Below, piece after piece: positions 328 to 35,246 of a DNA stretch of 64,000 nt (position 1 is the stretch's first letter; each line of letters starts with the position of its first letter). Origin of the DNA: an uncultured Planctomycetia bacterium (GTDB lineage: Bacteria > Omnitrophota > Gorgyraeia > Pluralincolimonadales > Pluralincolimonadaceae); contig CAZYUB010000002.1 of assembly GCA_964650515.1 (NCBI GenBank), positions 12,708 to 76,707 on the forward strand. Reading direction: 5' to 3'. The notes below the pieces were generated by a model that saw only the letters and a program-made list of their open reading frames with translations, made no database searches and was not told the DNA's origin. The position numbers and the translations under genes are program-made.

Positions 328-351
328 ATGCGAAGAAGAGCGGAGGTTTAC

Positions 352-834
352 ATGGGTACTAAAAAATGCCGCATGTTGGATGATATCGGCCTTATTGTGT
401 ATGATTTCGACGGGGTCTTCACGGATAACAAGGTGATTCTCAGGGAGGACGGCAAGGAGAGCGTTGTTGTGAACAGGTCCGACGGACTTGCGGTTGGCAT
501 GCTGAAAACCCTGGGTGTCCCGCAATTCATACTGACTACAGAAACAAACGGTGTCGTCAGATCCCGTGCGAAAAAGTTGGGCATCGGTATCAAAAAAGGG
601 CTGAAAGACAAGAGGTCGGCGCTTGTATCATTATGCAAGACGCACGGCGTGTCTCTCAGGAATGTAATGTTCGTTGGAAATGATATCAATGACCTCGAAG
701 CGATGAGGGAATGCGGCTATCCGGTTGCGCCAGCCGACTCTTACGCCCCGGCAAAGAAGGCAGCAAGGATAATCACAAAGGCAAAAGGCGGCGGCGGGGT
801 AGTGCGTGAACTGCTGGATATACTGTTAAAATAA
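352..834 (+). CDS. KdsC-family HAD-IIIA phosphatase (3-deoxy-ulosonate-phosphate phosphatase-like)
   Basis: HAD motif I 'IVYDFDGVFTDN' and motif IV 'GNDINDL', about 160 aa, as in KdsC/NeuAc-9-P phosphatase. ATG 352 has GGAGG 6 nt upstream; ATG 328 directly abuts the previous stop and is an alternative start. Confidence 0.6.
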   Translation: MGTKKCRMLDDIGLIVYDFDGVFTDNKVILREDGKESVVVNRSDGLAVGMLKTLGVPQFILTTETNGVVRSRAKKLGIGIKKGLKDKRSALVSLCKTHGVSLRNVMFVGNDINDLEAMRECGYPVAPADSYAPAKKAARIITKAKGGGGVVRELLDILLK

Positions 835-836
835 AT

Positions 837-8287: not shown

Positions 8288-8288
8288 T

Positions 8289-11491: not shown

Positions 11492-11492
11492 A

Positions 11493-18633: not shown

Positions 18634-19559
18634 AACCTTTGGTCAGCGTGCAGGTCTGCTGCTATAATTCGGAGAAATATCTTGCGCAAACCCTTGAGAG
18701 CGTGGCGGCCCAGACGTTCAATGGCTGGGAACTCGTGATCGTAAACGACGGTTCCACGGACGGGACGGAAGCGATAGTGGACGGTTTCGTGAAGAAGGGC
18801 CTGCCGATAACCTACCACAGCCAGCCAAACAGCGGTTTCGCAGCCGCGAGGAACAGGGCGGTAGGGTTGTCGAAAGGCGATTGGATAGCAATACTGGACC
18901 ACGACGACGTATGGCGTCCGGAAAAGCTTGATGTTCAGCTCAAAGCGGCCGAAAAATACCCGAAGGCTAAACTGCACTTCTCCAACTCGGAATGGTTCAC
19001 CGACGACGGTAAGATAGCGAGGAATACGATAGAGGACGGCAGGTTCTGCTCCGGCATAATAAAGGAGCCCTTCACGACGTTGCTGTCCGAGGGTTGCTTC
19101 ATAGACAGCGAGACTGCGCTGATAGACAAAAAGACTCTTGAAACCCTCGGCGGTTTCAACGAGAAATACAAGTATATCGTGGATTACGACATGTTCCTCA
19201 GGATAGCGAAGCAGGACACTATCTGCTATGAGGATAAGGTGCTTGCGGGATGGCGTATGCACCCGTCGCAGGCGACGAAGAAGCTTGAAGAGGAGATGAC
19301 GAGGGAATATATAGACCTTTTCGAGAAAGCGCTGAAGGAGAGCGGCCTGCCGGCGGAGGTAAAGGAGAAGGTGAAGAAGTCTATCGTTTACCACCTCAAC
19401 AACTACTCGCTTCTCATGCTGAAGAAGGAGGGCAAGAAGGCGTTCCTGCGCACGCTGCTGGGCGGGATAAGGAAGAGGCCGATGAGCCCTCACACGTACC
19501 TGAAGACGCTGCATACGTTCTGCAGGGCGTATATGGGCGAGGACATATCGTCAAGATGA
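18630..19559 (+). CDS. GT2 family glycosyltransferase
   Basis: 'VSVQVCCYNSEKYLAQTLESVAAQTF...ELVIVNDGSTDGT' and 'DHDD' are canonical GT-A/GT2 motifs. Confidence 0.75.
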   Translation: MKPLVSVQVCCYNSEKYLAQTLESVAAQTFNGWELVIVNDGSTDGTEAIVDGFVKKGLPITYHSQPNSGFAAARNRAVGLSKGDWIAILDHDDVWRPEKLDVQLKAAEKYPKAKLHFSNSEWFTDDGKIARNTIEDGRFCSGIIKEPFTTLLSEGCFIDSETALIDKKTLETLGGFNEKYKYIVDYDMFLRIAKQDTICYEDKVLAGWRMHPSQATKKLEEEMTREYIDLFEKALKESGLPAEVKEKVKKSIVYHLNNYSLLMLKKEGKKAFLRTLLGGIRKRPMSPHTYLKTLHTFCRAYMGEDISSR

Positions 19560-21076
19560 AGGTGTTGTTCATAAATTTCAATATCGGCTCCACACCGGGG
19601 ATCAATAACGGTATCGCGTGCCTATCCGCCGTCCTGAAGGAGAAGGGCCACAGCACGGCTCTCATATTCCTCTGCGAGCAGCTGGGCTACGGCTTTGACC
19701 CGGACAGGATAAAGAAGGACATATTGTCCGAGGCGCCCGGTATCATAGGGCTGTCGCTTATCGAGACGCAGCTTAAGTATGCCAGGAAACTGATGGAAGG
19801 GCTCAGGAGCTATTATAATGGCATCGTCGTATGCGGCGGGCCGTACCCGACGATGGACCCGGAAGGCTGCCTCGCGATAGAAGGCGTCGACGCCGTATGC
19901 GTCGGCGAGGGCGAGGATGCTCTTACCGAGCTTGCCGACGCGGTAGAGTCAGGCAGGAAGTACGACGGAATAAGGAACATATGGGTAAAGCGGGGCAATA
20001 CGGTAATAAAGAACAAACTGCGCCCGTTCAAGAGCTTATATGACCTGCCTCCGGACGATAAGGAGCTATTCGACCTGGACAGGATACTGCCGCTGAAGAA
20101 TTACCAGCTGGAGACGATGATAGGCAGGGGCTGCGTATACCAGTGCAGTTACTGCATAAACGATTCGTATGTGAGGAGGTACCGCGATCTTTGCGAACGC
20201 AAGGTCGGGCTCAACGATTACATAAGGTTCAAGGACGCCGTCAAGGCGGCTGCGGAGATAAAGGATACGGTCCTGAAACACCCGCAGATAAAGAAGATAG
20301 CTTTCATAGATGATAATTTCATAACCGACGAGAAATACCTCGCCAAGTTATGCGGGGAATATAAAAAGGCCGTGGCCCTGCCTTTCATGTGCAACGTAAA
20401 CCCCGCTTCCTATAACGAAAGGAAGGCGAGGATACTGAAAGAATCAGGCTGCGATGACGTGAGGTTCGGCATCGAGAGCGGAAGTGAGCGCGTAAAAAAA
20501 GAGGTGATGAAGCGTCCCGTCCCTAACAGGAGCGTATTGGAGGCATTCAGGATAAACAAGGAGCTGGATATGATGACCAGCTCATTCAATATGATAGGGC
20601 TGCCTACGGAGACGAAAGAGGAGGTCCTCGAGACGCTGAAGCTCAACGCGCGGATAATGCCGGACACGGTGAAGGTCATGACTTTCTACCCGTTCAAGAA
20701 CACGCCGATATACGGGTTCTGCGAAGAGCTCGGGCTCATCGATACGGAAGCAAAGGAAGAGCTCGATAATTACGATACTTTCACGTGTTTGAAGTTTCCC
20801 GGGGAGTACCGCCTGTTCCTCAGGAAGATGCAGGTCTGCTTCAACTGGTACCTGAACAGCATGCTGGGAAATGAGGCGTCCGGGGCGTACAGGGAGCTCG
20901 TGGAGAAGGCGGAGGGCATGTCCGGCGCGGAATGGGACGGCTATGATTTTTGCGCGGAGGACAAGAAGGTATCCGAAGCGATGAAGGCGAAGAATCTGGA
21001 GCATTACACGAAATATATGAACAGGAGCCTCGCGGTCAAATGGCCGAGCAGGCATACTATTGGAGAGTCGCGATGA
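19556..21076 (+). CDS. B12-binding domain radical SAM protein
   Basis: 'IGRGCVYQCSYC' CxxxCxxC with upstream B12-binding-like Rossmann; C-terminal 'FYPFKNTPIYG'. Confidence 0.7.
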   Translation: MKVLFINFNIGSTPGINNGIACLSAVLKEKGHSTALIFLCEQLGYGFDPDRIKKDILSEAPGIIGLSLIETQLKYARKLMEGLRSYYNGIVVCGGPYPTMDPEGCLAIEGVDAVCVGEGEDALTELADAVESGRKYDGIRNIWVKRGNTVIKNKLRPFKSLYDLPPDDKELFDLDRILPLKNYQLETMIGRGCVYQCSYCINDSYVRRYRDLCERKVGLNDYIRFKDAVKAAAEIKDTVLKHPQIKKIAFIDDNFITDEKYLAKLCGEYKKAVALPFMCNVNPASYNERKARILKESGCDDVRFGIESGSERVKKEVMKRPVPNRSVLEAFRINKELDMMTSSFNMIGLPTETKEEVLETLKLNARIMPDTVKVMTFYPFKNTPIYGFCEELGLIDTEAKEELDNYDTFTCLKFPGEYRLFLRKMQVCFNWYLNSMLGNEASGAYRELVEKAEGMSGAEWDGYDFCAEDKKVSEAMKAKNLEHYTKYMNRSLAVKWPSRHTIGESR

Positions 21077-21783
21077 CGAGCATTCTCATTATGTGCGGAG
21101 GAAGGGGCGCTAGGCTCGGAGATATCACGAAAAATTGTCCGAAGCCGCTGATTAAGATCGGGGGCGTGACTATACTTGAGCGAAAGATCGGGCATTATAT
21201 GCGAAATGGTTTTAAGGATTTCATTGTCTGTATCGGGTATAAGGCAGATATGATAAAATCTTCATTACGAAAAGGCGGTTTTTCAAGATATTGCAGGTAT
21301 TCAGATTCCGGTGAACCCGCGGGAATACTTAAAAGGCTGTATAACGCTCGAAATATGTTTGATGATAATGTGGTTCTTACATACGGAGACACTTTCGCGA
21401 ATATTGATCTGTCTTTGCTCCTAAAGACGCATATAAAGGAGAAGAATTCCGCCACCATAGTAGTGGCTCCTATCCAGAACCCTTTCGGCCTGGTAGAGTA
21501 TGATAATAATAGGAAAGTTTTGTCGTTCAAGGAAAAACCCGTTCTGAATTATTATATCGGATATGCGGTCATTAATAAATCTGACATAGAAAGAGTGCCG
21601 CAGAAAATGATAGGTATGCCCGACGGTAAAGGACTCGTGGAATTTTATAAATATCTTATAGATAAAGGCAGTCTCGGAATATTTGAATATTCGGGGCCGC
21701 AGATAACGTTTAATACGGAGGACGAGCTTAGGCTGGCTCGCAGGAAAATGACCGCATTCTATACAAGCAGGGAGGAAACTTGA
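21073..21783 (+). CDS. sugar-phosphate nucleotidyltransferase (NTP_transferase family)
   Basis: 'ILIMCGGRGARLGDITKNCPKPLIKIGG' G-x-G-x-R-L nucleotide-binding signature. ATGA overlap start at 21073; the ORF-track start 20950 is an upstream extension. Distinctly AT-richer than flanks. Confidence 0.6.
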   Translation: MTSILIMCGGRGARLGDITKNCPKPLIKIGGVTILERKIGHYMRNGFKDFIVCIGYKADMIKSSLRKGGFSRYCRYSDSGEPAGILKRLYNARNMFDDNVVLTYGDTFANIDLSLLLKTHIKEKNSATIVVAPIQNPFGLVEYDNNRKVLSFKEKPVLNYYIGYAVINKSDIERVPQKMIGMPDGKGLVEFYKYLIDKGSLGIFEYSGPQITFNTEDELRLARRKMTAFYTSREET

Positions 21784-22751
21784 AAAACAAGACGGTATTG
21801 GTGACCGGCGGGGCAGGTTTCATAGGTTCGCATTTAACGAAGAGGCTCGTGAAATCGGGCGCGAAAGTATCAGTAGTCGTGAAATACAAGAGCATAATAG
21901 ATAACGTCAGGCTAGCCCCGATATGGGATGATATTACGCCGATTGAGGCCGACCTGAGGAATATCGATTCAATGAGGCAATTTTCGGGAACTTCATACGA
22001 TCTCATATTCCATCTTGCGGCATACAACCATGTCGGAGACAGTTTCATGCACGTCAGTGAGGCGATTGAATCGAATGCGATGGCAACGGCCAACCTGCTT
22101 GAATTCGCCCCGCAATATAAGAGATTCATATATACATCTTCATCTGAAGTGTACGGAAAGCAAAATACCGTTCCGTTCGAAGAGAGCTTTACCCCGCATC
22201 CTATCTCGCCTTACGCTATCGGTAAATATGCCGGAGAGCTTTACGCGAAGATGAAACGCGAGCAGACAGGAAAAGATATAATCTGCTTAAGGTTCTTTAA
22301 CGTGTTCGGGCCTTACCAGAGCGAGAGGGCCGTAATACCGGAACTTATCATTAAGAGCCTGCGGGGGGAACCAATCAAGACTACCGAAGGGAAACAGACG
22401 AGGGAATTCAATTATGTAGATAATATTGTCGACGCCTTTATCGCCGCAGCAAAATTAAAAAAACCTCCGGAGGAGGTCATAAATATTGGCGCGCAGGAAG
22501 AGATATCGATATCGGACCTGGTGCGCAAGATACATAAGATGTCGGGCTCGCGGTCCAAGCTGATGATAGGAGCGCTTGCCTATAGGCCGACGGAAATTTG
22601 GAGGATGTATTCCAATAATACAAGGGCAAAGGAAATACTCGGATGGCAGCCACGGGTGGATTTTGATGAAGGCCTTAAGAAGACCGTGGAATGGTTCAGA
22701 AGGTATGTAAAACTATTCAGGGAAAAAGACTCGCTTCTTTGCAAGCTATGA
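21780..22751 (+). CDS. NAD-dependent epimerase/dehydratase (extended SDR; NDP-sugar 4,6-dehydratase/4-epimerase-like)
   Basis: '[14 protein letters not shown]' Rossmann, 'YAIGKYAGE' YxxxK catalytic motif. TTG start overlaps the upstream stop, with GGAGGA RBS. Confidence 0.7.
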   Translation: MKNKTVLVTGGAGFIGSHLTKRLVKSGAKVSVVVKYKSIIDNVRLAPIWDDITPIEADLRNIDSMRQFSGTSYDLIFHLAAYNHVGDSFMHVSEAIESNAMATANLLEFAPQYKRFIYTSSSEVYGKQNTVPFEESFTPHPISPYAIGKYAGELYAKMKREQTGKDIICLRFFNVFGPYQSERAVIPELIIKSLRGEPIKTTEGKQTREFNYVDNIVDAFIAAAKLKKPPEEVINIGAQEEISISDLVRKIHKMSGSRSKLMIGALAYRPTEIWRMYSNNTRAKEILGWQPRVDFDEGLKKTVEWFRRYVKLFREKDSLLCKL

Positions 22752-23620
22752 TGAACGTGAAGATAGGGATAACAGGGTCAAGAGGGTTCATAGGTTCCGA
22801 GTTGGCGGGGCATCTTGAAAGCAACGGCTTCAAGGTAGTCAAGCTGGACGGACATACTCGGCAGGAAAGCGGCGAGAATGAAAAGAGCGCCTTGCCGAAA
22901 GGCCTGAAATGGGTACTTCATTTTGCCGCATCGACATCTATTGAGGAGAGCCGGAAAGACCCGTTTCGAACATATAGGAACAATATAGATTCTACTCTTG
23001 CGGCGATTGAAATAGCCAAAGAGTCGAAAGCCGCCTTATTGTTCATGAGTTCATATGTTTACGGAAACCCGAAGTACGTTCCTATTGACGAGGACCATCC
23101 TCTTGGGGCTGTGAACCCATACATGTCGAGTAAGATAATATGCGAGGATATCTGCCGTCAGGTATCCAAGTTAATGTCAATACCTCTTGTCATATTAAGA
23201 GGATCGAATATTTATGGAAAAACCCTTATCAAGGGAAGGCTTATTCCCGATTTGCTGGAATCGGCGAAAAAGGGCGAGCAATTGACGATAACCGACCCTC
23301 TTCCAAGGAGGGATTACCTGTACATAAGGGATTTTTGCGGGTTGATTATCAAAATACTTGATAACGATCCCCCTATACAAGGGACATTCAATGCCGGACA
23401 GGGCCAAAGCTATTCCAACAAGGAAGTTGCGGAAATAGTTAGACGGCTTAGTTCAAATAAATACCCGGTAGCTGTTAACGGTCCGAAAAGGGAGAACGAC
23501 ATTAAGGACGCCTCGATAAACGTTTCTCTTGTAAAGAAGACTTTCATGTGGGAACCGTCATACAGTCTGGAAGACGGGCTGAAGGAACTCATAGGTCATA
23601 GAAAGAGAGGGTTAATATGA
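22748..23620 (+). CDS. NAD-dependent epimerase/dehydratase family (short form; NDP-4-keto-6-deoxyhexose reductase/epimerase-like)
   Basis: 'IGITGSRGFIGSEL', 'YMSSKIICE' YxxxK; about 290 aa. ATGA overlap start. Confidence 0.65.
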   Translation: MMNVKIGITGSRGFIGSELAGHLESNGFKVVKLDGHTRQESGENEKSALPKGLKWVLHFAASTSIEESRKDPFRTYRNNIDSTLAAIEIAKESKAALLFMSSYVYGNPKYVPIDEDHPLGAVNPYMSSKIICEDICRQVSKLMSIPLVILRGSNIYGKTLIKGRLIPDLLESAKKGEQLTITDPLPRRDYLYIRDFCGLIIKILDNDPPIQGTFNAGQGQSYSNKEVAEIVRRLSSNKYPVAVNGPKRENDIKDASINVSLVKKTFMWEPSYSLEDGLKELIGHRKRGLI

Positions 23621-24552
23621 TATCAATAATATCTCCGGTCTACAACGAAGCCGAAAATCTTGAAGAGCTTTGCAACAGGATCACGTCGGCCGTTAAGAAA
23701 GAGGAAGTTGATTATGAGGTCATCTTTGTAGATAACGGAAGCACGGATCGGTCGCTCGATGTAATAAAAAAGCTCAGGAAAAGCGACGCTAAAGTAAAAT
23801 ATGTAAGCCTTTCAAGGAATTTCGGCCATCAGGGAGGTATTGTTGCGGGTCTTTCAAGTGCATCTGGTGACGCGGTAATTTCACTTGACGCCGATCTTCA
23901 GCATCCGCCCGAACTCATACCGGAACTGATCAGGAAGTGGAAGGGCGGTTACTGTGTTGTTTCAACGACAAAGAAATTCAAAGGGGTGAGTTCAGGATTC
24001 AGCCTGTTCCCGAGCAGGATATTTTACAAGCTGATAAGCTCCATATCGGACATCAATTTGACCTACGGAGAATCGGATTATCGCCTGCTCGACCGGAAGG
24101 TGGTTGATGCAGTGTTGGAGATACCTGAAAAGCACAAATTCCTTCGCGGTATGGTCAAATGGGTCGGATTTTCGCAGACATCGGTCGAATACGAGGTAGC
24201 CCAGAGAAAATCCGGCGAATCGAAATTCTCGTTCTGGAATTACGTTAATTTTGCGTTTGACGGGATATTTTCATTCTCTATCGTACCTTTGAGGGTCTTC
24301 CTTTGGTCGGGCATCCTGGTGGCGTTATTCTGCATATTATGGGGAGCGTTCTATTTTGTAATGGGCCTGATCAGCCTTTTTTCCCCCGAGAAGAACCTTT
24401 TGCCGCCCGGCTCTGCCACGATAACGGTCAGCATAATGTTTCTCGGCGGAGTGCAGCTTATCGGGATAGGGATACTCGGCGAGTACCTTGGGCGCGTATA
24501 CCAGCAGACGAAGGAAAGGCCGGATTTTATCGTGAAGGAAAAAGAGCTGTAA
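23617..24552 (+). CDS. GT2 polyprenyl-phosphate glycosyltransferase (DPM1/ArnC/GtrB-like) with C-terminal TM helices
   Basis: 'ISIISPVYNEAENL...IFVDNGSTDRS...VSLSRNFGHQGGIVAGL...ISLDADLQHPPE', then two hydrophobic helices at the C-terminus. Confidence 0.75.
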   Translation: MISIISPVYNEAENLEELCNRITSAVKKEEVDYEVIFVDNGSTDRSLDVIKKLRKSDAKVKYVSLSRNFGHQGGIVAGLSSASGDAVISLDADLQHPPELIPELIRKWKGGYCVVSTTKKFKGVSSGFSLFPSRIFYKLISSISDINLTYGESDYRLLDRKVVDAVLEIPEKHKFLRGMVKWVGFSQTSVEYEVAQRKSGESKFSFWNYVNFAFDGIFSFSIVPLRVFLWSGILVALFCILWGAFYFVMGLISLFSPEKNLLPPGSATITVSIMFLGGVQLIGIGILGEYLGRVYQQTKERPDFIVKEKEL

Positions 24553-24558
24553 TAAGCC

Positions 24559-25401
24559 ATGGGTAATTGCATAGTTTGCGGCAGCAACGATAAAGGCCCC
24601 TTATTCGGAAAAATATCCAGATGCAAGGGGTGCGGCCATATATATTATGGTATAGAGCATACCGATGAAGAGATAGAAAGGCTTTATTCACATGGGTATT
24701 TCTTCGGGGAGGAATACAGCGATTATGTTGCTGACAGGAAAACCGCGAGCAAAAATTTCAGGCTTAGGGTCAAGGTTCTTAAACGGTTCCTGGACGCAAG
24801 CAAGCATAAGCGGCTGCTTGAGATTGGATGCGCATACGGGTTTTTTCTCGAGGAGGCTAAGGAATATTTTACTTCCGTTAAAGGCATCGATGTCTCTAAA
24901 GAGGCTGTGTCATACGCTAAGGACAGGCTGTTTTTGGATGTTGAAAGCGATGAATTCCTTAAACACGATTATAAGGGACAAAAATTCGATTGTGTATGCA
25001 TGTGGGACACCATCGAGCACTTGAAAAGGCCGGACCTGTATATTGAGAAGATCGGGCAGCTGACCGATAAGGGGGCTTTGCTTGCGCTGACGACCGGGGA
25101 TATAGCGAGCTTTAGCGCAAGAATGATGAAAAGTAAATGGCGCCTTATCCATCCACCCACCCATATACATTATTTTTCGGAAAAATCGCTTGCTAAGTTA
25201 TTGGAAAGGGGCGGTTTTAGGATTATTTATAAGTCTCATTGCGGATTTTTCAGGAGCATAGATATGCTGTTTAACAGGACCGTAGGCAAGATCCCGGGAT
25301 TGGGCAGATTATGTTCATTTATCGGCAAAACCGCTATTGGAAGGGTTGATTTTTATGTTAATCTTCGTGATATCATGTATTTGATCGCAAAAAAAGATTA
25401 G
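24559..25401 (+). CDS. class I SAM-dependent methyltransferase with N-terminal Zn-ribbon
   Basis: 'CIVCGSN...CKGCGH' ribbon; 'LLEIGCAYGFF' SAM motif I; 'DCVCMWDTIEHL' motif III. Confidence 0.6.
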   Translation: MGNCIVCGSNDKGPLFGKISRCKGCGHIYYGIEHTDEEIERLYSHGYFFGEEYSDYVADRKTASKNFRLRVKVLKRFLDASKHKRLLEIGCAYGFFLEEAKEYFTSVKGIDVSKEAVSYAKDRLFLDVESDEFLKHDYKGQKFDCVCMWDTIEHLKRPDLYIEKIGQLTDKGALLALTTGDIASFSARMMKSKWRLIHPPTHIHYFSEKSLAKLLERGGFRIIYKSHCGFFRSIDMLFNRTVGKIPGLGRLCSFIGKTAIGRVDFYVNLRDIMYLIAKKD

Positions 25402-25417
25402 TCTAGGGAGGTTAGAG

Positions 25418-27391
25418 ATGTGCGGCATATTCGGGTTCGTGCTAAACAAGGAATCAAAGATGTCGGAGGATGGCATCCGCGGGATGTTGCCTCTGATATG
25501 CAGGCTTTCGGAAAGGCGGGGGAGCGAAGCATCGGGTATCGCGATAGGCTTAGAAGGCGCGATATCATATTTTAAGAAGCCGATGAGGCCTACGCAGCTG
25601 GTCAAGGAAACGGATTTCCGGAAATTTATCGATTCTAAACTGGGACTGGCGGCCTCCGGCGAGTCAAGGATGGTAGAAAAGCCTTTTGCGGTGATCGGGA
25701 ACAGCCGCCTTGTGACGAACGGCACGCAGGCGGTGGCCCAGAACAACCAGCCGGTCGGCGCCGGCCGCGTAGTCGGCGTTCACAACGGGATCATAACCAA
25801 TTCGGACAGGATCCTGGAGAAGTACCCGAATGTCAGAAACGCGGTTGTGGATAGTTCGGATTCAGATACGTCAGTGCTTATGGGGTTGATAAATGAAAAA
25901 TACGCGGAAAGCGGCGATATAAAAAGTGCGCTCGCAGAAACGTATTCTGATATAGAAGGTTCTGCGTCTATTGCATTCATGTGCGAGAACGCGCCGTTTA
26001 TCGCGCTTGCGACAAATACAGGTTCCTTATTCTACAGTAACGATCCAAGTGCACGGATGTTTGTATTCGGTTCAGAGAAATTCATTGTAGAACGGTTCCT
26101 TGCCGGCAGTAAGATAGCATCCGGAAGGGATTTTGTTCCGGTGGTGCAGATCAAGCCGCATACCGCCGCTATAGTGGATATACATTCGGGCGCGCCTGAT
26201 ATTTACGACATGAGAGGGTACCAAAGCGGGAAAAAGATGGTTATCTCGGGCAAGAGATCCGGGTTATACAAGATATTTGATGAAAGCGAATCGAAGGTTG
26301 AATTAAAGCGATGCACGAGATGCATCCTGCCCGAATCATATCCGTTCATTGCTTTTGACGAAGAAGGTGTATGCAATTACTGCAGAAGATATAAGAAACA
26401 GGAATACCTTGGAAAAGCCGCGCTGGAAGAGGTGTTGTCAAAACACAGGTCGAAGGATGGTAAGCCCGACTGCATTTATGGCTTAAGCGGGGGCAGGGAC
26501 AGTTCCTACGGGTTGCATGTGCTTGTAAAAGAATTCGGGATGCATCCTATAGCGTATACATATGATTGGGCGCTTGTTACAGACCTTTCCAGGAGGAACC
26601 AGGCAAGGATCACCGGGAAGCTCGGAGTTGAGCATCTTATCAGAGCAGCGGATATACACGCCAAGAGGAGGCATATACGAAAGAATATCTACGCATGGCT
26701 TAAAAGGCCTAAGCTTGGCATGGTCACGATTTTCATGGCTGGCGACAAAATGTTTTACTACTATGGAAGGCAGTTGCGGAAAGAGACGGGGATTGATTTC
26801 ACCGTATTCGCTTCTGGACAACAGGTGGAGCAGATGGAATTCAAAGTCGGCTATTGCGGCATAAACAAGCAGCTTGTGAATAATACGCGCCTTTACGATT
26901 ACGGAGCATCGGCGAAGATGCGCCTTGCGCTATGGTACGGAAAGGAATTCATGCTTAATCCCTCCTACCTCAACGAATCACTCCCGGACAATATATTCGC
27001 GTTTTATTCCAGTTTCCTGAATAAGGATGACTATCTCTATCTCTATAATTACCTGCCTTGGGATGAAAAGCTGATAGAAAAAACAGTAATAGAACAATAC
27101 GGATGGGAGTCCGACGTTAAGTACGGCGGAAATCAGTGGAGAATGGGCGATGGCCAGACGGCTTTTATTAATTATATATATTATACGATAGGAGGTTTCT
27201 CCGAGTTTGATAATTTCCGAAGCAACCAGGTAAGGGAGGGATGGATTAAGAGGGAAGAGGCGCTTAACCTTGCGGAAAAGGATAACAGGCCTCGAATAGA
27301 CATGCTCCTTGATTTCAGCCAGCTGATAGGTTTTAATCTCGAAGACGTGCTTTTAAGGATTAATTCGATACCAAAGACATATATAAAATAA
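25418..27391 (+). CDS. class-II (Ntn) glutaminase domain fused to WbuX/PseA-type N-acetyl-sugar amidotransferase (PP-loop)
   Basis: N-terminus 'MCGIFGFV' with nucleophile Cys2 and AsnB-like 'GNSRLVTNG'. Middle 'CTRCILPESYPFIAFDEEGVCNYC' matches the WbuX/PseA zinc ribbon. 'SGGRDSS' PP-loop. GGGAGG RBS in the 16-nt gap upstream. Confidence 0.65.
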   Translation: MCGIFGFVLNKESKMSEDGIRGMLPLICRLSERRGSEASGIAIGLEGAISYFKKPMRPTQLVKETDFRKFIDSKLGLAASGESRMVEKPFAVIGNSRLVTNGTQAVAQNNQPVGAGRVVGVHNGIITNSDRILEKYPNVRNAVVDSSDSDTSVLMGLINEKYAESGDIKSALAETYSDIEGSASIAFMCENAPFIALATNTGSLFYSNDPSARMFVFGSEKFIVERFLAGSKIASGRDFVPVVQIKPHTAAIVDIHSGAPDIYDMRGYQSGKKMVISGKRSGLYKIFDESESKVELKRCTRCILPESYPFIAFDEEGVCNYCRRYKKQEYLGKAALEEVLSKHRSKDGKPDCIYGLSGGRDSSYGLHVLVKEFGMHPIAYTYDWALVTDLSRRNQARITGKLGVEHLIRAADIHAKRRHIRKNIYAWLKRPKLGMVTIFMAGDKMFYYYGRQLRKETGIDFTVFASGQQVEQMEFKVGYCGINKQLVNNTRLYDYGASAKMRLALWYGKEFMLNPSYLNESLPDNIFAFYSSFLNKDDYLYLYNYLPWDEKLIEKTVIEQYGWESDVKYGGNQWRMGDGQTAFINYIYYTIGGFSEFDNFRSNQVREGWIKREEALNLAEKDNRPRIDMLLDFSQLIGFNLEDVLLRINSIPKTYIK

Positions 27392-27392
27392 T

Positions 27393-28220
27393 ATGGGCGT
27401 AAACTGCACTATTTGCGGAAACAGCGCGAATACCATCCTCGCAGACGGGACGATAAACCGGTATGACTGCGTATCCTGCGGACATTCATTTTCCGTGATT
27501 GAGCCGTCAAAACAAGTTTCTTACAATGCGGATTACTATGACCTTAAGCATGCAAACTGGTTCAGCAATCCCAATATATGGTTATTCAGGTACATTTTGA
27601 AGCAGGCGCGGATCATCCTGGGCGACGGCAGGATATCGGTGGTCGATGTGGGGTGCGGTAAGGCTGATTTCCTGAAATACGCAAGGATAAAAGACCGCAA
27701 GGTCGATGTTTACGGCATAGACCTGTGCGATAACGATATTCCGGACATAGCGTTCTATAGGGCAGATTTCCTAAAAACGGAGATCAACCGGAAATTTGAT
27801 CTGGTTACAAGCATGGCCTCGATCGAACATGTTGAAGATGTGAATTCTTTTGTCAGGAGGCTGGCGAATCTATCGTCTCAGGGAGGCATTATATCCGTAA
27901 CTACGGATAATGCAGGCGGGATATTCTTTTCATTGTCGAGATTTCTAAAAAAGGCGGGATTGGCAACGCCTTATTACAGCCTTTATGAGCCGGCCCATTT
28001 GCAGCATTTCACGAATAAATCATTGCGGATCCTTCTTGAAAAGAACGGACTTAAGGTCATCTCGCAAAGGAACCACAATTATCCCGCTGAAGCGGTGGAC
28101 ATGCCGGATGCAAACCCGTTCATGAAGATGGTTTATATATTAGGAGTACGCTTCCTGTTTGCCATGCCGTCGAACTTCGGGATCCTGCAGACAGCTATTT
28201 GCAGGAAGGAAAGAAATTGA
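27393..28220 (+). CDS. class I SAM-dependent methyltransferase with N-terminal Zn-ribbon
   Basis: 'CTICGNS...CVSCGH' ribbon; 'VVDVGCGKADFL' motif I; 'FDLVTSMASIEHV'. Confidence 0.55.
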   Translation: MGVNCTICGNSANTILADGTINRYDCVSCGHSFSVIEPSKQVSYNADYYDLKHANWFSNPNIWLFRYILKQARIILGDGRISVVDVGCGKADFLKYARIKDRKVDVYGIDLCDNDIPDIAFYRADFLKTEINRKFDLVTSMASIEHVEDVNSFVRRLANLSSQGGIISVTTDNAGGIFFSLSRFLKKAGLATPYYSLYEPAHLQHFTNKSLRILLEKNGLKVISQRNHNYPAEAVDMPDANPFMKMVYILGVRFLFAMPSNFGILQTAICRKERN

Positions 28221-30094
28221 ACCGCAGCCCTTTCCGTATTAAATACGGGCTTTACGCGATCTTGCTTCTTGTTATCTGTATTGCGGTCGCATCATCTGTT
28301 TTGCCCGGTATCGGCAAACACCTCGACAACCCTAACCTTATACCGTATTTCAACGTTGACGAAGGTTATCTTATGGACCTGATGTGGTATTACTACTCAG
28401 GGGAGATCAGGGACAGTTTCCAGATGACGCTTGATTACGGGTTGGAGATGGTTTACGTGGTCAAGTTCTGCCGCATATTCCTTTCGGAGAAAATGGTATT
28501 CACCCCGGGCACTTTCGTAATGATATTCAGGTATATTCATCTCATATCCTGGATCGCGGCTATTATTTGTTTATGGGGGCTGGTCGGCAGGCATTTCCGT
28601 AAAGGCGCAGAGCAGGTAGTTGTGGCGGGCCTTCTTGCCGTTAGCCCGAGTTTCGGTTATTTCATGAACAGCCTTAAGCCGGACCCTTTGTTATTACTTA
28701 TCATGGTCTTGGGCATGGATTATACTCTCAGGATGATAGATAAACCGCGAACAGCATATTTCATTGCCGTCATATTTTTGTCTGCAATGGGATTCGTGGT
28801 CAAATTTTCCGGCATATTTATGCTCTTGCCGTTAATAGCGTCATTATATATTTCACGCCAAATGTTAAATAATGAGAATAGCTGGATCGCGCGGTTCAAT
28901 ATAAGAGGGGTGTGGTGCATACCCTTGGTTGCTTCGGCAGTAATGATCGCGCTGCCGATAGCGGCTATATTTATATATGTTCGAAAAACATCGGGAATGA
29001 CATATTTTCAGGAATATGGATTTTGGCAGGCGTTTATAAGATATAAGATAGCGACGGTATTTGGCGCGGCCGGTTTGTCTCTTGCGGCATTTAGTATCGC
29101 CTTGTACAAGATGAGCAGGTCAAGGAAGGACTACGTGCGGGAAATATGGAAAAAACTTGAGATATTTGGGTCGTATTCGGTCTTTGCCGCGGGCGCTTTT
29201 ATCATTGCTTTATTGATCGTAGGATTCGGATGGCTGCTGATGCCGGCGCATTTCTTCGAAACATATTTTCTTAACGGGATGGATTTTACCGGTGGCGAGA
29301 TCCTTAAGCAGGTAAAGACCATACCGCAGTTAACCGCGGTATATTCTTCTGCGATCGCCGAAAGGTTAGGGTCATTGGATATCGTCATGTTAGCGCTGTT
29401 TGCCGTGTATGCGTTAGTTGAATATAATTATCGTACGACTCTTGCCAGGGAAGATGAAGCCAGACGCAGAAAAAGATTACTAATATCCGTTTATTTGATC
29501 CCTTTTTTCATGATGATGTTTACGCTGGGCCGGTTTACGAACCATCACGCGCTTATATTCACTGTTTTTGTGTCATTGTTGGCCGTAGAAGGTATATATA
29601 TCATCATGACGAGGCCGAATATGAATATGCTTGTAAAGTCGGTTATCGGGACAGGCGCTGCCGTATATTTCCTGATTGATTTGACGCTGGGCGGTTATGC
29701 GATGGCAAAAGAGCGCATGTATGAGCTGAGAAAAGATGAAGATGTTTGCTTCGAGGTGGAAAAATGGATCCGGAATAACCTTCCCCAGGACGCAAGAATC
29801 CTCACCGATTATCATACTAGGGCCTATGTTCCCCCTTATCTTAATAATCCGATAACTCTGAAGCACGGGGGTAAGGACAGGCTTACACAGATAACAGAGC
29901 TTATTAATGATGCCAGGCCGCGCTATATATATTTGAATGAAGGGACCGGTGATGAGAACCTGCCTCCTATCGAAAAAATAGTCACGGGCGGAAAAACCAG
30001 GCTGTTGGCTTACTTCGAAAGCAAGGGAAGGCAATACCAGAGAAGGAGAGGAGATAAATACGTAATATATGAAATATTTTACGAAAGTAAGTAG
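28199..30094 (+). CDS. polytopic membrane protein, GT-C fold (ArnT/PMT-like) glycosyltransferase candidate with C-terminal periplasmic domain
   Basis: At least 11 hydrophobic helices, then a soluble ~150-aa tail. TTG start is uncertain: the first in-frame ATG lies after the first TM helix. Low-GC region. Confidence 0.5.
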   Translation: MQEGKKLNRSPFRIKYGLYAILLLVICIAVASSVLPGIGKHLDNPNLIPYFNVDEGYLMDLMWYYYSGEIRDSFQMTLDYGLEMVYVVKFCRIFLSEKMVFTPGTFVMIFRYIHLISWIAAIICLWGLVGRHFRKGAEQVVVAGLLAVSPSFGYFMNSLKPDPLLLLIMVLGMDYTLRMIDKPRTAYFIAVIFLSAMGFVVKFSGIFMLLPLIASLYISRQMLNNENSWIARFNIRGVWCIPLVASAVMIALPIAAIFIYVRKTSGMTYFQEYGFWQAFIRYKIATVFGAAGLSLAAFSIALYKMSRSRKDYVREIWKKLEIFGSYSVFAAGAFIIALLIVGFGWLLMPAHFFETYFLNGMDFTGGEILKQVKTIPQLTAVYSSAIAERLGSLDIVMLALFAVYALVEYNYRTTLAREDEARRRKRLLISVYLIPFFMMMFTLGRFTNHHALIFTVFVSLLAVEGIYIIMTRPNMNMLVKSVIGTGAAVYFLIDLTLGGYAMAKERMYELRKDEDVCFEVEKWIRNNLPQDARILTDYHTRAYVPPYLNNPITLKHGGKDRLTQITELINDARPRYIYLNEGTGDENLPPIEKIVTGGKTRLLAYFESKGRQYQRRRGDKYVIYEIFYESK

Positions 30095-30797
30095 AGCTGA
30101 AGTCGTAATACTATGCGGCGGTATGGGCACGCGCATGAAAGAGGAGACGGAATACAGGCCCAAGCCGATGGTCGAGATAGGCGGAAAACCGATCATCTGG
30201 CATATAATCAGGCACTATTCACTGTTCGGGTTCGACAGGTTCATATTGGCACTCGGGTATAAGGGCGACCAGATAAGGGAATATTTCTCAGGGGACGGGA
30301 ACGTCGTCTGCGTCGAAACGGGGCTTAAGACGCTGAAAGGCGGAAGGATAAAGAGATTGGAGCCCTTCATCCAGGGTAAGCATTTCCATCTTACATACGG
30401 TGACGGGCTGAGCGATGTTGATATCGGCCGGCTTGAAGCGTTCCACAGGAAGCACGGGAAGATATGCACGGTCACGGCCGTAAGGCCGCCTTCCCGCTTC
30501 GGGGAGATGGTGATAAAGGGGAACAAGGTCAGGGAGTTTGAGGAGAAACCGCAGCTTTCGACCGGGCATATAAACGGCGGATATTTCGTGTTCAAGAGGG
30601 AGATATTCGATTACCTGACTTCATCGAAGGATTGTGATTTCGAGTTCGGGCCCCTGCAAAAGCTGTCAAGGAAAGGGCAGATGATGGCATACCGGCATTA
30701 CGGGTACTGGCAGTGCATGGATACGGTCAGGGACGCGGAGTACCTGAACAAGCTATGGAAGTCGGGAGCCGCGCCGTGGAAGACGTGGAAGAGATGA
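30069..30797 (+). CDS. rfbF: glucose-1-phosphate cytidylyltransferase (CDP-glucose pyrophosphorylase, RfbF-like)
   Basis: 'VVILCGGMGTRMKEETEYRPKPMVEIGGKPIIWHIIRHYSLFGFDRFILALGYKGDQIREYF' is near-canonical RfbF. Confidence 0.7.
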   Translation: MKYFTKVSRAEVVILCGGMGTRMKEETEYRPKPMVEIGGKPIIWHIIRHYSLFGFDRFILALGYKGDQIREYFSGDGNVVCVETGLKTLKGGRIKRLEPFIQGKHFHLTYGDGLSDVDIGRLEAFHRKHGKICTVTAVRPPSRFGEMVIKGNKVREFEEKPQLSTGHINGGYFVFKREIFDYLTSSKDCDFEFGPLQKLSRKGQMMAYRHYGYWQCMDTVRDAEYLNKLWKSGAAPWKTWKR

Positions 30798-32299: not shown

Positions 32300-33199
32300 A
32301 TGCAGACCGTCGATTTTCTCGTCATAGGGGCGAACGGATTGGTGGGGAGGCGCGTCCTGTCATTGCTGAAGGCAAAAGGGGAAAGCGCGTCAGGCACATA
32401 CAACAGGCGCGCCGAGGGCGGGCTCATTCCCTTTGATATAACTGATGGGGCATCGGCCAGGCGGATATTCAAGGACCTTGCGCCGAGACGGGTGTACCTT
32501 TGTGCTAACCTGCCAGGCGGAGTTGACTATTGCGAAAAAAACCCGGCGCAAGCCCGCAGGTTCTATTATGACGCGACCGTGAATATCGGTAACTTGTGCG
32601 GCGAGTCTGGCGCATCCCTAATATTCATCTCCACGGACTATGTATTTGACGGATCTAAGGGGCCTTATATGGAGGAGGACGGAAAGAACCCCCTCAATCT
32701 TTACGGCCGGCTGAAGCTTGAGGCCGAGGAATGGATCCGGAAAAACATGAAAAAGCACATAATAGCCAGGACAACAAATGTTTTTGGATGGGATCCGCAG
32801 ACCGTAACGCCTAATTATGTAATGAACCTTTACATGACTTTAAGGTCAAGCAAATTATTCAATGCGCCGTCATATCTGTGGGGTAACCCGACGTACGCGG
32901 GGGACCTTGCAGCAGCGCTCATAGAACTGTCGGATTGTAATGCCTCGGGCATATTTCATGTGGTCGGCGGCAGTTTCGTGAACAGGTATGAGTGGGCTAT
33001 CGAGGCATGCAGGGCGCTGGAACTGGATGCAGGGCTCATAAAAGAAGTCAAGGATCCCCCGCAGAACGCAGTTCCACGCCCGTTAAAATCATGGCTTGGA
33101 ACGGATAAATTCCGCGGCTCTTTCAAGACGGTATTGCATAGCATGAAGGAAGGCCTCGCTCTTATGAAGGAAGAGTCAGATAAGGACGATGGGAGATAA
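32300..33199 (+). CDS. RmlD-like NDP-4-keto-6-deoxyhexose reductase (dTDP-4-dehydrorhamnose reductase family)
   Basis: 'FLVIGANGLVGRRV', 'IFISTDYVFDGSKGPYMEED', 'YGRLKLEAE' (YxxxK) match the RmlD substrate-binding domain. Confidence 0.7.
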   Translation: MQTVDFLVIGANGLVGRRVLSLLKAKGESASGTYNRRAEGGLIPFDITDGASARRIFKDLAPRRVYLCANLPGGVDYCEKNPAQARRFYYDATVNIGNLCGESGASLIFISTDYVFDGSKGPYMEEDGKNPLNLYGRLKLEAEEWIRKNMKKHIIARTTNVFGWDPQTVTPNYVMNLYMTLRSSKLFNAPSYLWGNPTYAGDLAAALIELSDCNASGIFHVVGGSFVNRYEWAIEACRALELDAGLIKEVKDPPQNAVPRPLKSWLGTDKFRGSFKTVLHSMKEGLALMKEESDKDDGR

Positions 33200-34094
33200 T
33201 TTGCCCCTATTCACGGTGGTCATTTCGACCTATAACAGGAAGCACGTCCTGCCGCGCGCGATATCGAGCGTGCTGGGGCAGACGTGCGGGGATTTCGAGC
33301 TTATAGTGATAGACAACGGCTCCACGGACGGCACGGAGTCTGCCGTCAGCGACATAAAGGACCCGAGGATAAAATACATCAGGAACCCAGAACCGACCTC
33401 ATCCTGCGACGGGCCGCGCAACATGGGCATAGAAATGGCCAAAGGAAGCTACATCGCGTTCCTCGATGACGATGACATCTGGTATCCGCAGCGCCTCGAG
33501 AAAGTAAAAGAAGCATTCGATAGCGACCCGGGAGTATCCGCCATATGCCACAACGAGAACAGGAATTACAAGGGCAAAGTCGACAAGGTACTCGAATACG
33601 GGCCTTGGTCTGAGGACCTGCATGAGCGGCTCCTGTATGACGGCAACTGCATGTCGTCGTGCGGGACTACGGTCAGGGCGGAAGTGTTGAGGGCGCTGAA
33701 CGGTTTCGATACGCGCAGGGAATATGCCGCTGCGGGCGACTACGAGTTCTGGATAAGGATGACCGCTTCAGGCGCCAAGGTCGGTTTTATCAAAGAGCCT
33801 CTCGGCGAATTCGGCTTTACCGGGGTTAATTGGAGCTTAAGGGACGCGGCTTTCCAATCAAGGGTCGCGGCGATCGTACGCGACCACATACTGATGCAAG
33901 AGAAGAAGAATATATACGGCGTATCGGAAAGGGGAGCCGCGCGCCTCTCGAAGCTTTACGCTATAGCAGCGAGGTCTTTTTTTAGGGCGGGCAGGCCGCT
34001 GCCTGCGCTGGCATATTCGTTAAAAGCGCTGTTTCTCGTCCTGATAAGGCCGAACCTGGTTATCAGGATGTTATCAAGGGGGAAAGAGCGGTAA
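33189..34094 (+). CDS. GT2 family glycosyltransferase
   Basis: 'FTVVISTYNRKHVLPRAISSVLGQT...ELIVIDNGSTDGT...FLDDDD'. Confidence 0.7.
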   Translation: MGDNLPLFTVVISTYNRKHVLPRAISSVLGQTCGDFELIVIDNGSTDGTESAVSDIKDPRIKYIRNPEPTSSCDGPRNMGIEMAKGSYIAFLDDDDIWYPQRLEKVKEAFDSDPGVSAICHNENRNYKGKVDKVLEYGPWSEDLHERLLYDGNCMSSCGTTVRAEVLRALNGFDTRREYAAAGDYEFWIRMTASGAKVGFIKEPLGEFGFTGVNWSLRDAAFQSRVAAIVRDHILMQEKKNIYGVSERGAARLSKLYAIAARSFFRAGRPLPALAYSLKALFLVLIRPNLVIRMLSRGKER

Positions 34095-34097
34095 TAA

Positions 34098-35246
34098 ATG
34101 AAGATGCGGAAGGCTGTCATAATAATATTATGCTGTACCGTAGCGTTTACGTTATTTCCGTTCGCGATGTTGGCCAACAGGGGTACGGCATATTTCGCTT
34201 ACAAAGAGATAGCATATAAAACGATGGCAGATAGGCTGGCCAGCAGCTCTGACGGGCCTGAAGAAGCAGCGATGCGCATCAGCGAGTATTATCACCGGTA
34301 CCTGTTCACGCCGTTAGGGGCCCAAGCCGTAGATAAGGATACTTATAATGACATCATCAGGGGAATAGCATATTGCGACCAGAAGGCCTGGGGGATGTCC
34401 GCTTTTCTTGCGAAACGGGGAATAGACAGCAGGATGATTATGGCAGTCAATCCCGACGGCCAGTCAAACCATACCGCCCTTGAAGCGAATATCGGAGGAA
34501 AATGGAGGTATTTCGACCCACAATATGCGCTAGTTATACGCAGGAAGGACGGGGAGCTTGCTTCATACAATGATATGTGCGAGGACTCGTCGCTTTTGGT
34601 CGATTCTCCAAGGATGTGCCTGCTGGAGAAGGCCTGCCCCGCGGAGTTCGAGATCGTAAGTAAATACCTGGAAAAGAACGTGTTCAATCCGGGAGTTATA
34701 AAACCGGTAATATGGAATAGCCCCGCCAAAAGCAAGGGAAACGCAAAACGCGCCCTATCGGGCGTTTTGGACACTTATGTCGCGTTCTTCGGCAGGAAAT
34801 TCTCCTGTCTCTTCCAGGACGCGTATCTGGGCATCTATTCCGGGAAGGGCGGACATAATGCCGATTATCTGCTCGCAAGGAATTATGATATCTACGGAAG
34901 GTACGATAAAGCGGCCTATTATTACAGGAAGTTCATAGGGAATTCTTCATCAGATGCCGAAAGGTATTCCGCAATGCTGTTCCTCTCGATCATATATACA
35001 AATAGCGGGGACTATGAGGCCGCGATAGGTACACTCAGGACTATGATGGCGGAGCAGGCGTCATCTAAATGGGCGTCGTCTATGTATTACTGGCTCGGTT
35101 ATAATTATGAGGCCCGGAATGATGCGGAAAAGGCAGCGGATTGCTACCGGACCTCCATAAAGGAACGCGCGAAGACGGGTGACCCGTCGGATATGGTAAA
35201 ACTACTAGAACTAGATTCATTCGAAAGGCTTGCGGAATTGGAATGA
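34098..35246 (+). CDS. secreted or membrane-anchored transglutaminase-like (Cys-His-Asp) domain protein with C-terminal TPR repeats
   Basis: N-terminal hydrophobic signal/anchor. 'CDQKAWGMSAF' (Cys), 'NHTALE' (His), 'RYFDPQ' (Asp) are spaced as in transglutaminase-like cores. C-terminal repeated 'Y..A...Y..' TPR-like helices. Confidence 0.45.
   Translation: MKMRKAVIIILCCTVAFTLFPFAMLANRGTAYFAYKEIAYKTMADRLASSSDGPEEAAMRISEYYHRYLFTPLGAQAVDKDTYNDIIRGIAYCDQKAWGMSAFLAKRGIDSRMIMAVNPDGQSNHTALEANIGGKWRYFDPQYALVIRRKDGELASYNDMCEDSSLLVDSPRMCLLEKACPAEFEIVSKYLEKNVFNPGVIKPVIWNSPAKSKGNAKRALSGVLDTYVAFFGRKFSCLFQDAYLGIYSGKGGHNADYLLARNYDIYGRYDKAAYYYRKFIGNSSSDAERYSAMLFLSIIYTNSGDYEAAIGTLRTMMAEQASSKWASSMYYWLGYNYEARNDAEKAADCYRTSIKERAKTGDPSDMVKLLELDSFERLAELE

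Follow-up and report, generated by a model that had tools for sequence, protein, structure and literature searches.

How does a stretch of some 9 kb with a clearly lower guanine + cytosine (GC) content come to lie in the middle of a surface-glycan gene cluster, and what does it bring with it? The question is raised by a window of 64,000 nucleotides (nt) from an uncultured Planctomycetia bacterium placed by GTDB in the Omnitrophota (assembly GCA_964650515.1, contig CAZYUB010000002.1, positions 12,708 to 76,707); all positions below are those of this window. The window is approximately one gene cluster, with about 55 tightly packed genes, all on the plus strand, from base 1 to beyond base 64000. 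This surface-glycan cluster (more than 62 kb on a single strand) encodes glycosyltransferases (GT) of the types GT2, GT4, and GT-C, enzymes for nucleoside diphosphate (NDP)- and cytidine monophosphate (CMP)-sugars, and an ATP-binding cassette (ABC) exporter. Within it, the segment 21055–30098, between a gene for a B12-binding radical S-adenosylmethionine (SAM) enzyme and a gene of the RfbF type, is, with a probability that we put at roughly 0.85, a horizontally acquired eight-gene glycan-decoration cassette that has replaced an ancestral one in a conserved slot of the locus.

The composition of the block is distinct. The GC content of 21073–30094 is 45.6%, versus 54.3% for 4001–21072 and 53.9% for 30095–64000. 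In windows of 500 bp, the mean is 0.457 in the block (standard deviation 0.021, n = 18) and 0.540 outside it (standard deviation 0.029, n = 99; Mann–Whitney p = 1e-10). A sequence-only reading had drawn the block at 21073..30094 by eye and would have given it up with no step above about 5% in such windows; the step is about 9 points. An unsupervised maximum-likelihood search for two breakpoints over 4001–62863, without prior coordinates, lands essentially on the same place (21171–30110, with a log-likelihood gain of 110). The GC content at third codon positions (GC3) is 0.45–0.57 in the eight block genes against roughly 0.60–0.78 in the genes of the remaining locus (the backbone), and that at second positions (GC2) is unchanged; the shift is therefore one of third-codon, synonymous sites. 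The Karlin codon-usage distance to the backbone is 0.33–0.58 for the block genes (mean 0.44), with a mean of 0.26 for the backbone genes. The composition-corrected tetranucleotide correlation between block and backbone is 0.79, while backbone pieces of 8.5–9 kb reach 0.95 among themselves and other backbone segments 0.88–0.94. The block signature is nearest to those of low-GC relatives (L001, r = 0.87; the left arm of L063, r = 0.89). The checks on GC3, codon usage, and tetranucleotides that had been proposed with the block thus all set it apart from the backbone.

The comparison with two close relatives shows that the step in composition is also a break in homology. The closest relative, L009, is Ca. 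Omnitrophota isolate SO_2017_LW4_113, taken from species-representative genomes; L006 is a contig of a Candidatus Omnitrophica metagenome-assembled genome (MAG; GCA_028718735.1), reached via a radical SAM homologue with 91% identity. In blastn, L009 matches the window over 7786–11493 and 13263–21054 at 94–95% and over 30096–32295 at 93%, and L006 over 9737–21054 at 83.9% and over 30099–32257 at 89.8%, with nothing between. Neither shares nucleotide homology with the block, and in both the homology is lost within a few bases of the composition step. At the amino acid level, the left-flank radical SAM protein has 95% identity to that of L009 and 91% to that of L006, and the RfbF-like protein on the right has 97% identity to that of the closest relative. 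Between the same flanks, L009 and L006 hold a different cassette of 7.8 kb. Its genes encode an ArnC-like GT2, a short-chain dehydrogenase/reductase (SDR) like 4,6-dehydratases, an ArnB/PseC-like (DegT) aminotransferase, two methyltransferases, a B12-radical SAM enzyme, and a GT-C enzyme. The composition of this cassette is backbone-like (GC 0.50–0.59, GC3 0.64–0.79, tetranucleotide r = 0.93).

The direction of the change can be read from the three sequences. In the backbone, the nucleotide identity is 94.4% between the window and L009, 85.3% between the window and L006, and 86.2% between L009 and L006; these values make the window and L009 sisters. With the GT-C gene excluded, the L009 and L006 cassettes are 86.7% identical, like their backbones. 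The cassette of the relatives has thus diverged together with the backbone and is therefore ancestral, vertically inherited from the common ancestor of all three. It follows that the block in the window is the derived state, and that it came by replacement and not by simple insertion. The block was gained recently, once the lineages of the window and L009 (with 94% backbone identity) had split, since its composition has not yet drifted to that of the recipient. The sequence-only reading had seen an acquired cassette fully integrated into the operon, and the loss of homology at the GC step between flanks shared at 85–94% supports this; the mode is refined from insertion into an uninterrupted operon to replacement in a conserved slot.

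The GT-C genes seem to follow a course of their own. Those that close the relatives' cassette (L061 1223–3007 and L006 17498–19333) have 40% amino acid identity, while the other six genes have about 87% nucleotide identity. The GT-C gene is the most variable component throughout, and genes of this family appear to be swapped, or to diverge, separately from the cassettes that contain them.

The slot itself is much older than the event. Cassettes of the window type occur between the same two flanking genes in L001 (44% GC), L003 (42%), and L004 (52.5%), and L004 carries all eight cassette genes in the same order as the window. In these three loci, amino acid identity to the window is 38–71% for block genes and 45–83% for flank genes. 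Four further loci from Omnitrophota and Planctomycetia MAGs (L010–L013, 39.5–59.9% GC) present the same slot with other cassette variants, which include a homologue of the GT2 of the block (50–53% amino acid identity). In all seven, the radical SAM gene is the left neighbor of the cassette, and the GC content of the cassette equals that of the flanks (over the range 39.5–59.9%); the two are discordant in the window only. With the same type of cassette in the same slot of distant relatives at their own GC content, the architecture is therefore old and the window copy alone is foreign. The event is a module exchange in a long-standing slot found across phyla, and not an insertion into a virgin site.

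The joints can be placed almost to the base. On the left, identity to the relatives ends at 21054, within the codons for PSRH, seven codons before the stop of the radical SAM gene, and the last 7 codons of that gene (from 21055) belong to the swapped segment. On the right, identity resumes at 30096–30099, shortly ahead of the VVILCGG codons and ten codons from the start of the RfbF-like gene; the first 10 codons of this gene lie inside the swapped segment, and the N-termini differ ahead of VVILCGG. Every version of the locus keeps both motifs, but not the tails beyond them. The histidine codon of PSRH is CAT in the window and in the window-type loci L001, L003, and L004, and CAC in L009 and L006. 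Identity to L009 holds at 0.84–0.97 right up to the joints, and the flanks therefore contain little donor DNA, if any. The ATGA junctions that had been read straight through both boundaries are present on the left, with an overlap at 21073–21076, but not on the right, where the ATG of the next gene at 30069 overlaps the GT-C gene (stop at 30092–30094) by 26 nt.

The block is not a site-specifically integrated island. There are no tRNA genes in the window, no recombinase domain (integrase or transposase) in the block according to Pfam, and no exact direct or inverted repeats flanking it. A 14-nt pair close to both joints (D18) was considered as a flanking repeat and discarded (13 of the 14 positions are identical, most likely by chance). 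Conserved nucleotide "hooks" by the joints were likewise sought in the distant loci and rejected: identity there is 0.49–0.61 on the left and 0.51–0.78 on the right, no higher than elsewhere in the genes, and only the codons for PSRH and VVILCGG are common to these loci at the joints. Promoter-like sites show no excess (15 found, 19.9 expected). Terminator-like matches number 26, against 10.9 ± 3.9 in shuffled sequences; most are on the minus strand within coding sequence, and we attach no meaning to them. There are register-matched direct repeats about 9,020 nt apart (21233–21256 with 30253–30276 and 21375–21390 with 30389–30404, among them D1 and D7). They stem from the paralogy of the first block gene and the right-flank gene, both for nucleotidyltransferases (about 33–36% amino acid identity). 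The block is bracketed by two homologous gene starts, and deletion or exchange could be favored between them.

The genes of the block, numbered B1 to B8, are listed in Table 1 with the flanking genes and the other segments of the locus that are discussed below. The content given by the sequence-only reading is borne out by the Pfam and NCBIfam matches.

Table 1. Coordinates of the replaced segment, of its genes (B1–B8) and flanks, and of other divergent segments of the locus.
Feature	Coordinates	Strand	Evidence
Left-arm mosaic segment, ~47% GC	1..3105	+	positional homologues in closest relative 47–75% amino acid identity
Left flank: B12-binding radical SAM enzyme, left anchor of the slot	19556..21076	+	Pfam B12-binding + Radical_SAM
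Replaced segment, ~9.04 kb, 45.6% GC	21055..30098	+	blastn breakpoints, junction alignments, composition
B1, sugar-1-phosphate nucleotidylyltransferase	21073..21783	+	Pfam NTP_transferase; NCBIfam matches weak
B2, SDR, NDP-sugar 4,6-dehydratase type	21780..22751	+	Pfam GDP_Man_Dehyd, Epimerase
B3, second SDR, epimerase or 4-reductase type	22691..23620	+	Pfam Epimerase
B4, GT2 polyprenyl-phosphate glycosyltransferase, GtrB/ArnC/PgfS type	23617..24552	+	PDB, NCBIfam matches
B5, SAM-dependent methyltransferase	24559..25401	+	Pfam Methyltransf_23
B6, fusion of N-terminal class-II (N-terminal nucleophile, Ntn) glutamine amidotransferase and WbuX/LfnA-like PP-loop N-acetyl-sugar amidotransferase	25418..27391	+	
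B7, second SAM-dependent methyltransferase	27393..28220	+	Pfam Methyltransf_23
B8, GT-C family membrane glycosyltransferase, ArnT/PMT type	28199..30094	+	Pfam PMT_2 44.7 bits (cutoff 26.1)
Right flank: glucose-1-phosphate cytidylyltransferase-like (RfbF-like), right anchor	30069..30797	+	TIGR02623 280.5 bits (cutoff 300)
Divergent-allele island: GT2, transglutaminase-tetratricopeptide repeat protein, GT-C	33189..37066	+	76–78% amino acid identity, adjacent genes 98%
Divergent-allele GT-C gene	40762..42114	+	72% amino acid identity, neighbors 93–98%; 47.9% GC

B4 has full-length matches to the polyprenyl-phosphate glucosyltransferase GtrB (PDB 5EKP, E = 3e-80, residues 2–307) and to ArnC (E = 1e-46); in NCBIfam, it scores 298.6 bits with PgfS and 184 bits with ArnC, and it has two hydrophobic C-terminal segments (residues 216–257 and 266–289). 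B8 has at least nine hydrophobic segments and a soluble C-terminal part; it is assigned to GT-C by sequence family, with no match to the PDB sequences. Extracytoplasmic glycosylation that draws on a polyprenyl-phosphate sugar has as its hallmark just such a pair of a GtrB-type and a GT-C enzyme (PMC11127046). The start of B3 is probably near 22754, judging from a Pfam Epimerase match that begins at residue 27 and from the length of the orthologues in L001, L003, and L004 (282–291 amino acids).

B6 is the most peculiar protein of the block. Pfam places GATase_6 and GATase_7 at residues 88–220, and the WbuX-like domain aligns with an "N-acetyl sugar amidotransferase" of the PDB (8wex, E = 2e-11), with the PP-loop motif SGGRDS in register. 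Both WbuX and LfnA are reported as needed for the acetamidino sugar L-FucNAm of O antigens (King et al. 2008, as cited in 10.1101/2024.04.26.591252). From its domains, B6 may be a single-polypeptide, glutamine-dependent acetamidino-sugar synthase; we found no characterized member of this family of fusions between an Ntn glutaminase and a WbuX-like domain. The family is large, with 4,441 matches among 8,000 candidates scored, from Omnitrophota, Brocadiaceae, Rhodospirillaceae, and other MAGs. Among the 120 matches listed, 103 come without a source name or only as "hypothetical protein", the other 17 carry Joint Genome Institute labels (asparagine synthetase B or glutamine/glucosamine–fructose-6-phosphate (amino)transferase), and none is named N-acetyl-sugar amidotransferase.

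Taken together, the domains suggest a pathway. B1 to B3 would produce an NDP-activated 6-deoxy-N-acetylhexosamine. B6 would convert the N-acetyl group into a positively charged acetamidino group, with glutamine supplied via the fused Ntn domain, and B5 and B7 would methylate the sugar. B4 would then load the sugar onto polyprenyl phosphate at the cytoplasmic face and, after flipping, B8 would transfer it onto a glycan, lipid, or protein acceptor beyond the cytoplasmic membrane. The product, as far as enzyme families can tell, would most likely be a methylated sugar of the 2-acetamidino-6-deoxyhexose type. The displaced cassette is an Arn-like amino-sugar module with the same overall logic. The net effect of the swap would be the exchange of one extracytoplasmic sugar decoration for another. 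The donor would be a lower-GC organism (about 44–46% GC) with the same kind of locus.

Several points weigh against this account of the block. A donor with a near-identical cassette, sought with the most distinctive block protein (657 residues), did not appear: the best non-self match to this protein reaches 62% among 5.8 billion proteins, and megablast of the block against plasmids gives no match. The source is a metagenome-assembled contig from a single assembly, and the block proteins are known from a single contig only. The whole window is one glycan locus, and "native" and "foreign" compositions are thus defined with respect to the backbone of that locus. On the functional side, the best family match of B2 (TIGR04180, LegB) has 195 bits and is below the cutoff of 475, and the match of B6 to WbuX (TIGR03573, from residue 297) has 131.9 bits and is below the cutoff of 203.2. 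None of the eight block genes encodes a flippase (GtrA, SMR, or MATE/Wzx-like). In homologous cassettes, the corresponding place is held by a Polysacc_synt (Wzx/MATE-like) gene in L003 and by an LPG_synthase_TM gene in L001; in the window, it is possible that the flippase is encoded elsewhere in the locus, for example by the gene at 39230–40765, whose product has 8 membrane segments. Finally, the flanks of the sampled window-type loci are just about 50–78% identical at the nucleotide level near the joints. With a donor so divergent, classical homologous recombination would be inefficient, and a closer, unsampled donor or a microhomology-mediated joining must be assumed. We infer that the exchange went by recombination through the conserved ends of the flanks, with either donor flanks closer than those of any sampled locus or a joining via the short shared stretches that encode the two motifs.

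Other explanations of the same data have to be compared with such a replacement. The possibility that we regard as the least remote, unlikely as it is, turns the composition around: the genome would be at about 45% GC and the 54% backbone would be an older foreign island, so that the swap is real and the block matches its host. In the closest relative, the 10 kb that precede the backbone are indeed at 42–47% GC, and backbone GC alone defines the reference in a window made of one glycan locus. However, these 10 kb are also glycan-locus DNA (NeuB, cytidylyltransferase, radical SAM, methyltransferase), itself variable between relatives; in L064, a relative with 90% identity, that arm is at 54.7% GC; and the nearest homologues of the block are all 38–71% identical and in foreign genomes, with none elsewhere on the same contigs. 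The low GC could also stem from properties of the genes themselves, with no transfer at all: the amino acids of membrane proteins, the expression level, or selection for AT-rich codons. For milder dips in the locus this has some appeal, since they match GT-C membrane proteins with T-rich coding sequence and are common to the closest relative. Applied to the main block, it is scarcely credible. The shift there is at third codon positions with GC2 unchanged and 6 of the 8 block proteins have no membrane segment, two findings for which a membrane-protein composition was rejected as the cause; in addition, orthologous cassettes elsewhere carry exactly the GC content of their hosts, and the closest relatives have no homologous DNA at that place, an absence that already refutes the idea for the block.

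Two further explanations, both very unlikely in our view, concern the assembly and the direction of the change. In an assembly chimera, reads of two co-occurring populations (54% and about 45% GC), both with this type of locus, would have been joined. The origin in a MAG contig, the presence of the block proteins on one NCBI contig (151,550 bp), and joints that adjoin short stretches conserved among the locus versions, where assembly graphs can cross, all go in that sense. But two independent in-frame mis-joins are then required, each yielding intact genes: the tail of the radical SAM gene is completed with its ATGA overlap, and the N-terminus of the RfbF-like protein is encoded within the block. 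The known low-GC versions share just about 10 identical nt at the joints, far under assembler k-mer sizes, and the flank–cassette–flank architecture is real in the independent assemblies L001, L004, and L005. With the direction reversed, the low-GC cassette would be ancestral in the lineage and L009 and L006 would have gained the Arn-like cassette later, a view to which the presence of window-type cassettes in the slot of the distant L001, L003, and L004, old and widespread as they are, lends some weight. It conflicts with the equal divergence of the L009 and L006 cassettes and backbones (86.7% and 86.2%) and with the backbone-like GC, GC3, and tetranucleotide signature (r = 0.93) of these cassettes. 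Because the window forms a pair with L009 (94.4%) from which L006 (85.3%) is excluded, the reversed direction needs two gains, or a gain and a transfer; further, an ancestral cassette should have ameliorated to 54% GC, as the cassettes of L004 and L012 have done. The recent replacement of the Arn-like cassette by the low-GC one remains the reading that we adopt.

There are other dips of GC in the locus. We compared the window gene by gene with 51 kb of the contig of the closest relative, pieced together from L063, L009, and L061; the backbone genes have 90–99% amino acid identity. The sequence-only reading had noted similar dips at about 837..2669 and 34100..36400 and taken them, too, for acquired cassettes. 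The dips are real but milder in nature (45.2% and 49.8% GC, with a further one of 47.9% at 40762–42114), and the segments are low in GC in the window and in the closest relative alike, where they are present as strongly divergent alleles (47–78% amino acid identity, against the 90–99% of the backbone). In the left arm, genes within 328–3834 have 54%, 47%, and 75% amino acid identity to those of the closest relative, and nucleotide homology begins at 3106, inside a GFO/IDH/MocA gene. The AT skew is negative at 28000–29500, 35500–37000, and 41500–42000; GT-C genes are T-rich, and this contributes to the milder dips. The milder dips may reflect either allelic replacement or a fast divergence of membrane GT-C genes. 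In this locus, wherever the GC content dips, the closest relative has either a non-orthologous segment or a strongly divergent one, a point of relevance for the scanning of genomes.

In the closest relative, the DNA upstream of the backbone (L063 1–10000, 42–47% GC) contains NeuB, cytidylyltransferases, radical SAM/SPASM proteins, and a methyltransferase, and from this content it looks like a nonulosonic-acid module. It has no nucleotide-level homology with the left arm of the window. The resemblance of its signature to that of the block (r = 0.89) is a hint of a common low-GC source pool.

The locus presents further features of its own. There are four B12-binding radical SAM genes in this one glycan locus (4874–6520, 15710–17206, 19556–21076, and 43544–44992), and a fifth sits in the alternative cassette of the relatives; such an abundance suggests that sugars are extensively C-methylated or modified by other radical chemistry. 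The ABC exporter fusion gene at 11493–13262 (ABC_membrane + ABC_tran, 601 amino acids) is cleanly missing in L009, in which window position 11493 is joined to 13263, and is kept in the more distant L006 at 94% amino acid identity; this is a presence/absence polymorphism of a probable glycan exporter. Five large proteins without a Pfam match (about 510–700 amino acids by the longest open reading frame) are encoded at 837–2669, 9641–11491, 16963–18633, 39230–40765, and 49794–51896. The product of 39230–40765, with its 8 predicted membrane segments and its gene flanked by a GT2 gene and a GT-C gene, is a candidate flippase or polymerase. At the end of the window, a gene for an initiating polyprenyl-phosphate sugar-phosphate transferase of the WecA/MraY type (with an NLLDNMDGL-type motif) starts at 62866 and exits the window, so that the glycan locus extends past these 64 kb.

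A change of surface sugar by the switch of a cassette is a known and ordinary kind of event, here unusually clean. The present case is a switch resolved to the base and in its direction. It comes from Omnitrophota, a phylum of very small, uncultured bacteria the envelopes of which are essentially unknown, and it shows that their surface is diversified by the route familiar from well-studied pathogens. The conserved slot and its alternative GtrB/GT-C decoration modules could be mined across phyla, and the family of fusions between an Ntn glutaminase and a WbuX-like domain offers a plausible one-protein route to acetamidino sugars.

A broader view can be proposed tentatively; we hold it to be possible, though short of probable. 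In it, the locus forms a plug-and-play system, with a fixed slot between the B12-radical SAM gene and the RfbF-like gene, in which complete modules are exchanged across wide GC distances with joints precise to the motif. The locus may be common to Omnitrophota, Planctomycetia, and Brocadiaceae MAGs (the latter from the source names of homologues). Each module would supply the enzymes for a modified amino sugar, for its transfer to polyprenyl phosphate, and, with a GT-C enzyme, for its attachment outside the membrane. Both cassettes of the clade would provide a cationic sugar, that of the window through an acetamidino group made by the fusion synthase and the Arn-like cassette of the relatives through an amino or dimethylamino group. 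If this is true, the exchange of cationic sugars would tune the surface charge in ultra-small and possibly host-attached bacteria.

How does the replacement compare with known systems? The WbuX/LfnA/PseA amidotransferases (PDB 8wex) share with B6 the PP-loop domain (SGGxDS) and the setting in a cluster for a sugar of the 6-deoxy-N-acetylhexosamine type. Unlike them, B6 is fused to an N-terminal Ntn glutaminase instead of having separate HisH/HisF-like partners, and its score is under the NCBIfam cutoff. The three-component systems (GtrA/GtrB/Gtr of Shigella and Salmonella, ArnC/ArnE-F/ArnT, and the pentofuranose system of PMC11127046) have the same pair of a GtrB/ArnC-type glycosyltransferase and a GT-C enzyme, and GT-C, here the most variable of the components, mirrors the serotype-specific Gtr enzymes. 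Two of the three components are thus present in the block (the polyprenyl-phosphate glycosyltransferase and the GT-C enzyme), and the flippase, whether GtrA, SMR, or MATE, is absent from it. The block differs also in that it adds its own NDP-sugar pathway, two methyltransferases, and an amidotransferase, and in that it is chromosomal and in-operon, not prophage-borne.

The closest parallel is the switching of serotypes by exchange of O-antigen or capsule genes, as in Pseudomonas aeruginosa ST111 from O4 to O12 (10.1101/2024.04.26.591252). In both, a compositionally deviant cassette for sugar synthesis and transfer is exchanged between conserved flanks, close relatives differ only in the cassette, and there is no integrase or tRNA. 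The incoming amidotransferase of the WbuX/LfnA type also recalls the acetamidino sugar of O12. The differences are that one decoration module is exchanged here in a locus of more than 62 kb, and not a set for Wzx/Wzy repeat-unit assembly, and that the organism is an uncultured Omnitrophota MAG known from its genes, with no donor found. The swap shows all the tested defining features of a cassette exchange of the serotype-switch type apart from an identified donor. The locus had been called serotype-determining; a patchwork surface-glycan locus is indeed what we observe, and the word serotype is to be taken as an analogy only. A survey of hypervariable regions in Omnitrophota genomes, cell-surface biosynthesis regions included, lists glycosyltransferase genes for lipopolysaccharide or capsule and genes for polysaccharide biosynthesis as part of their cargo (10.64898/2026.06.07.730766). 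That survey is a catalogue, and the present case is a single event resolved to the base, with its ancestral and derived states and with a slot that is conserved across phyla.

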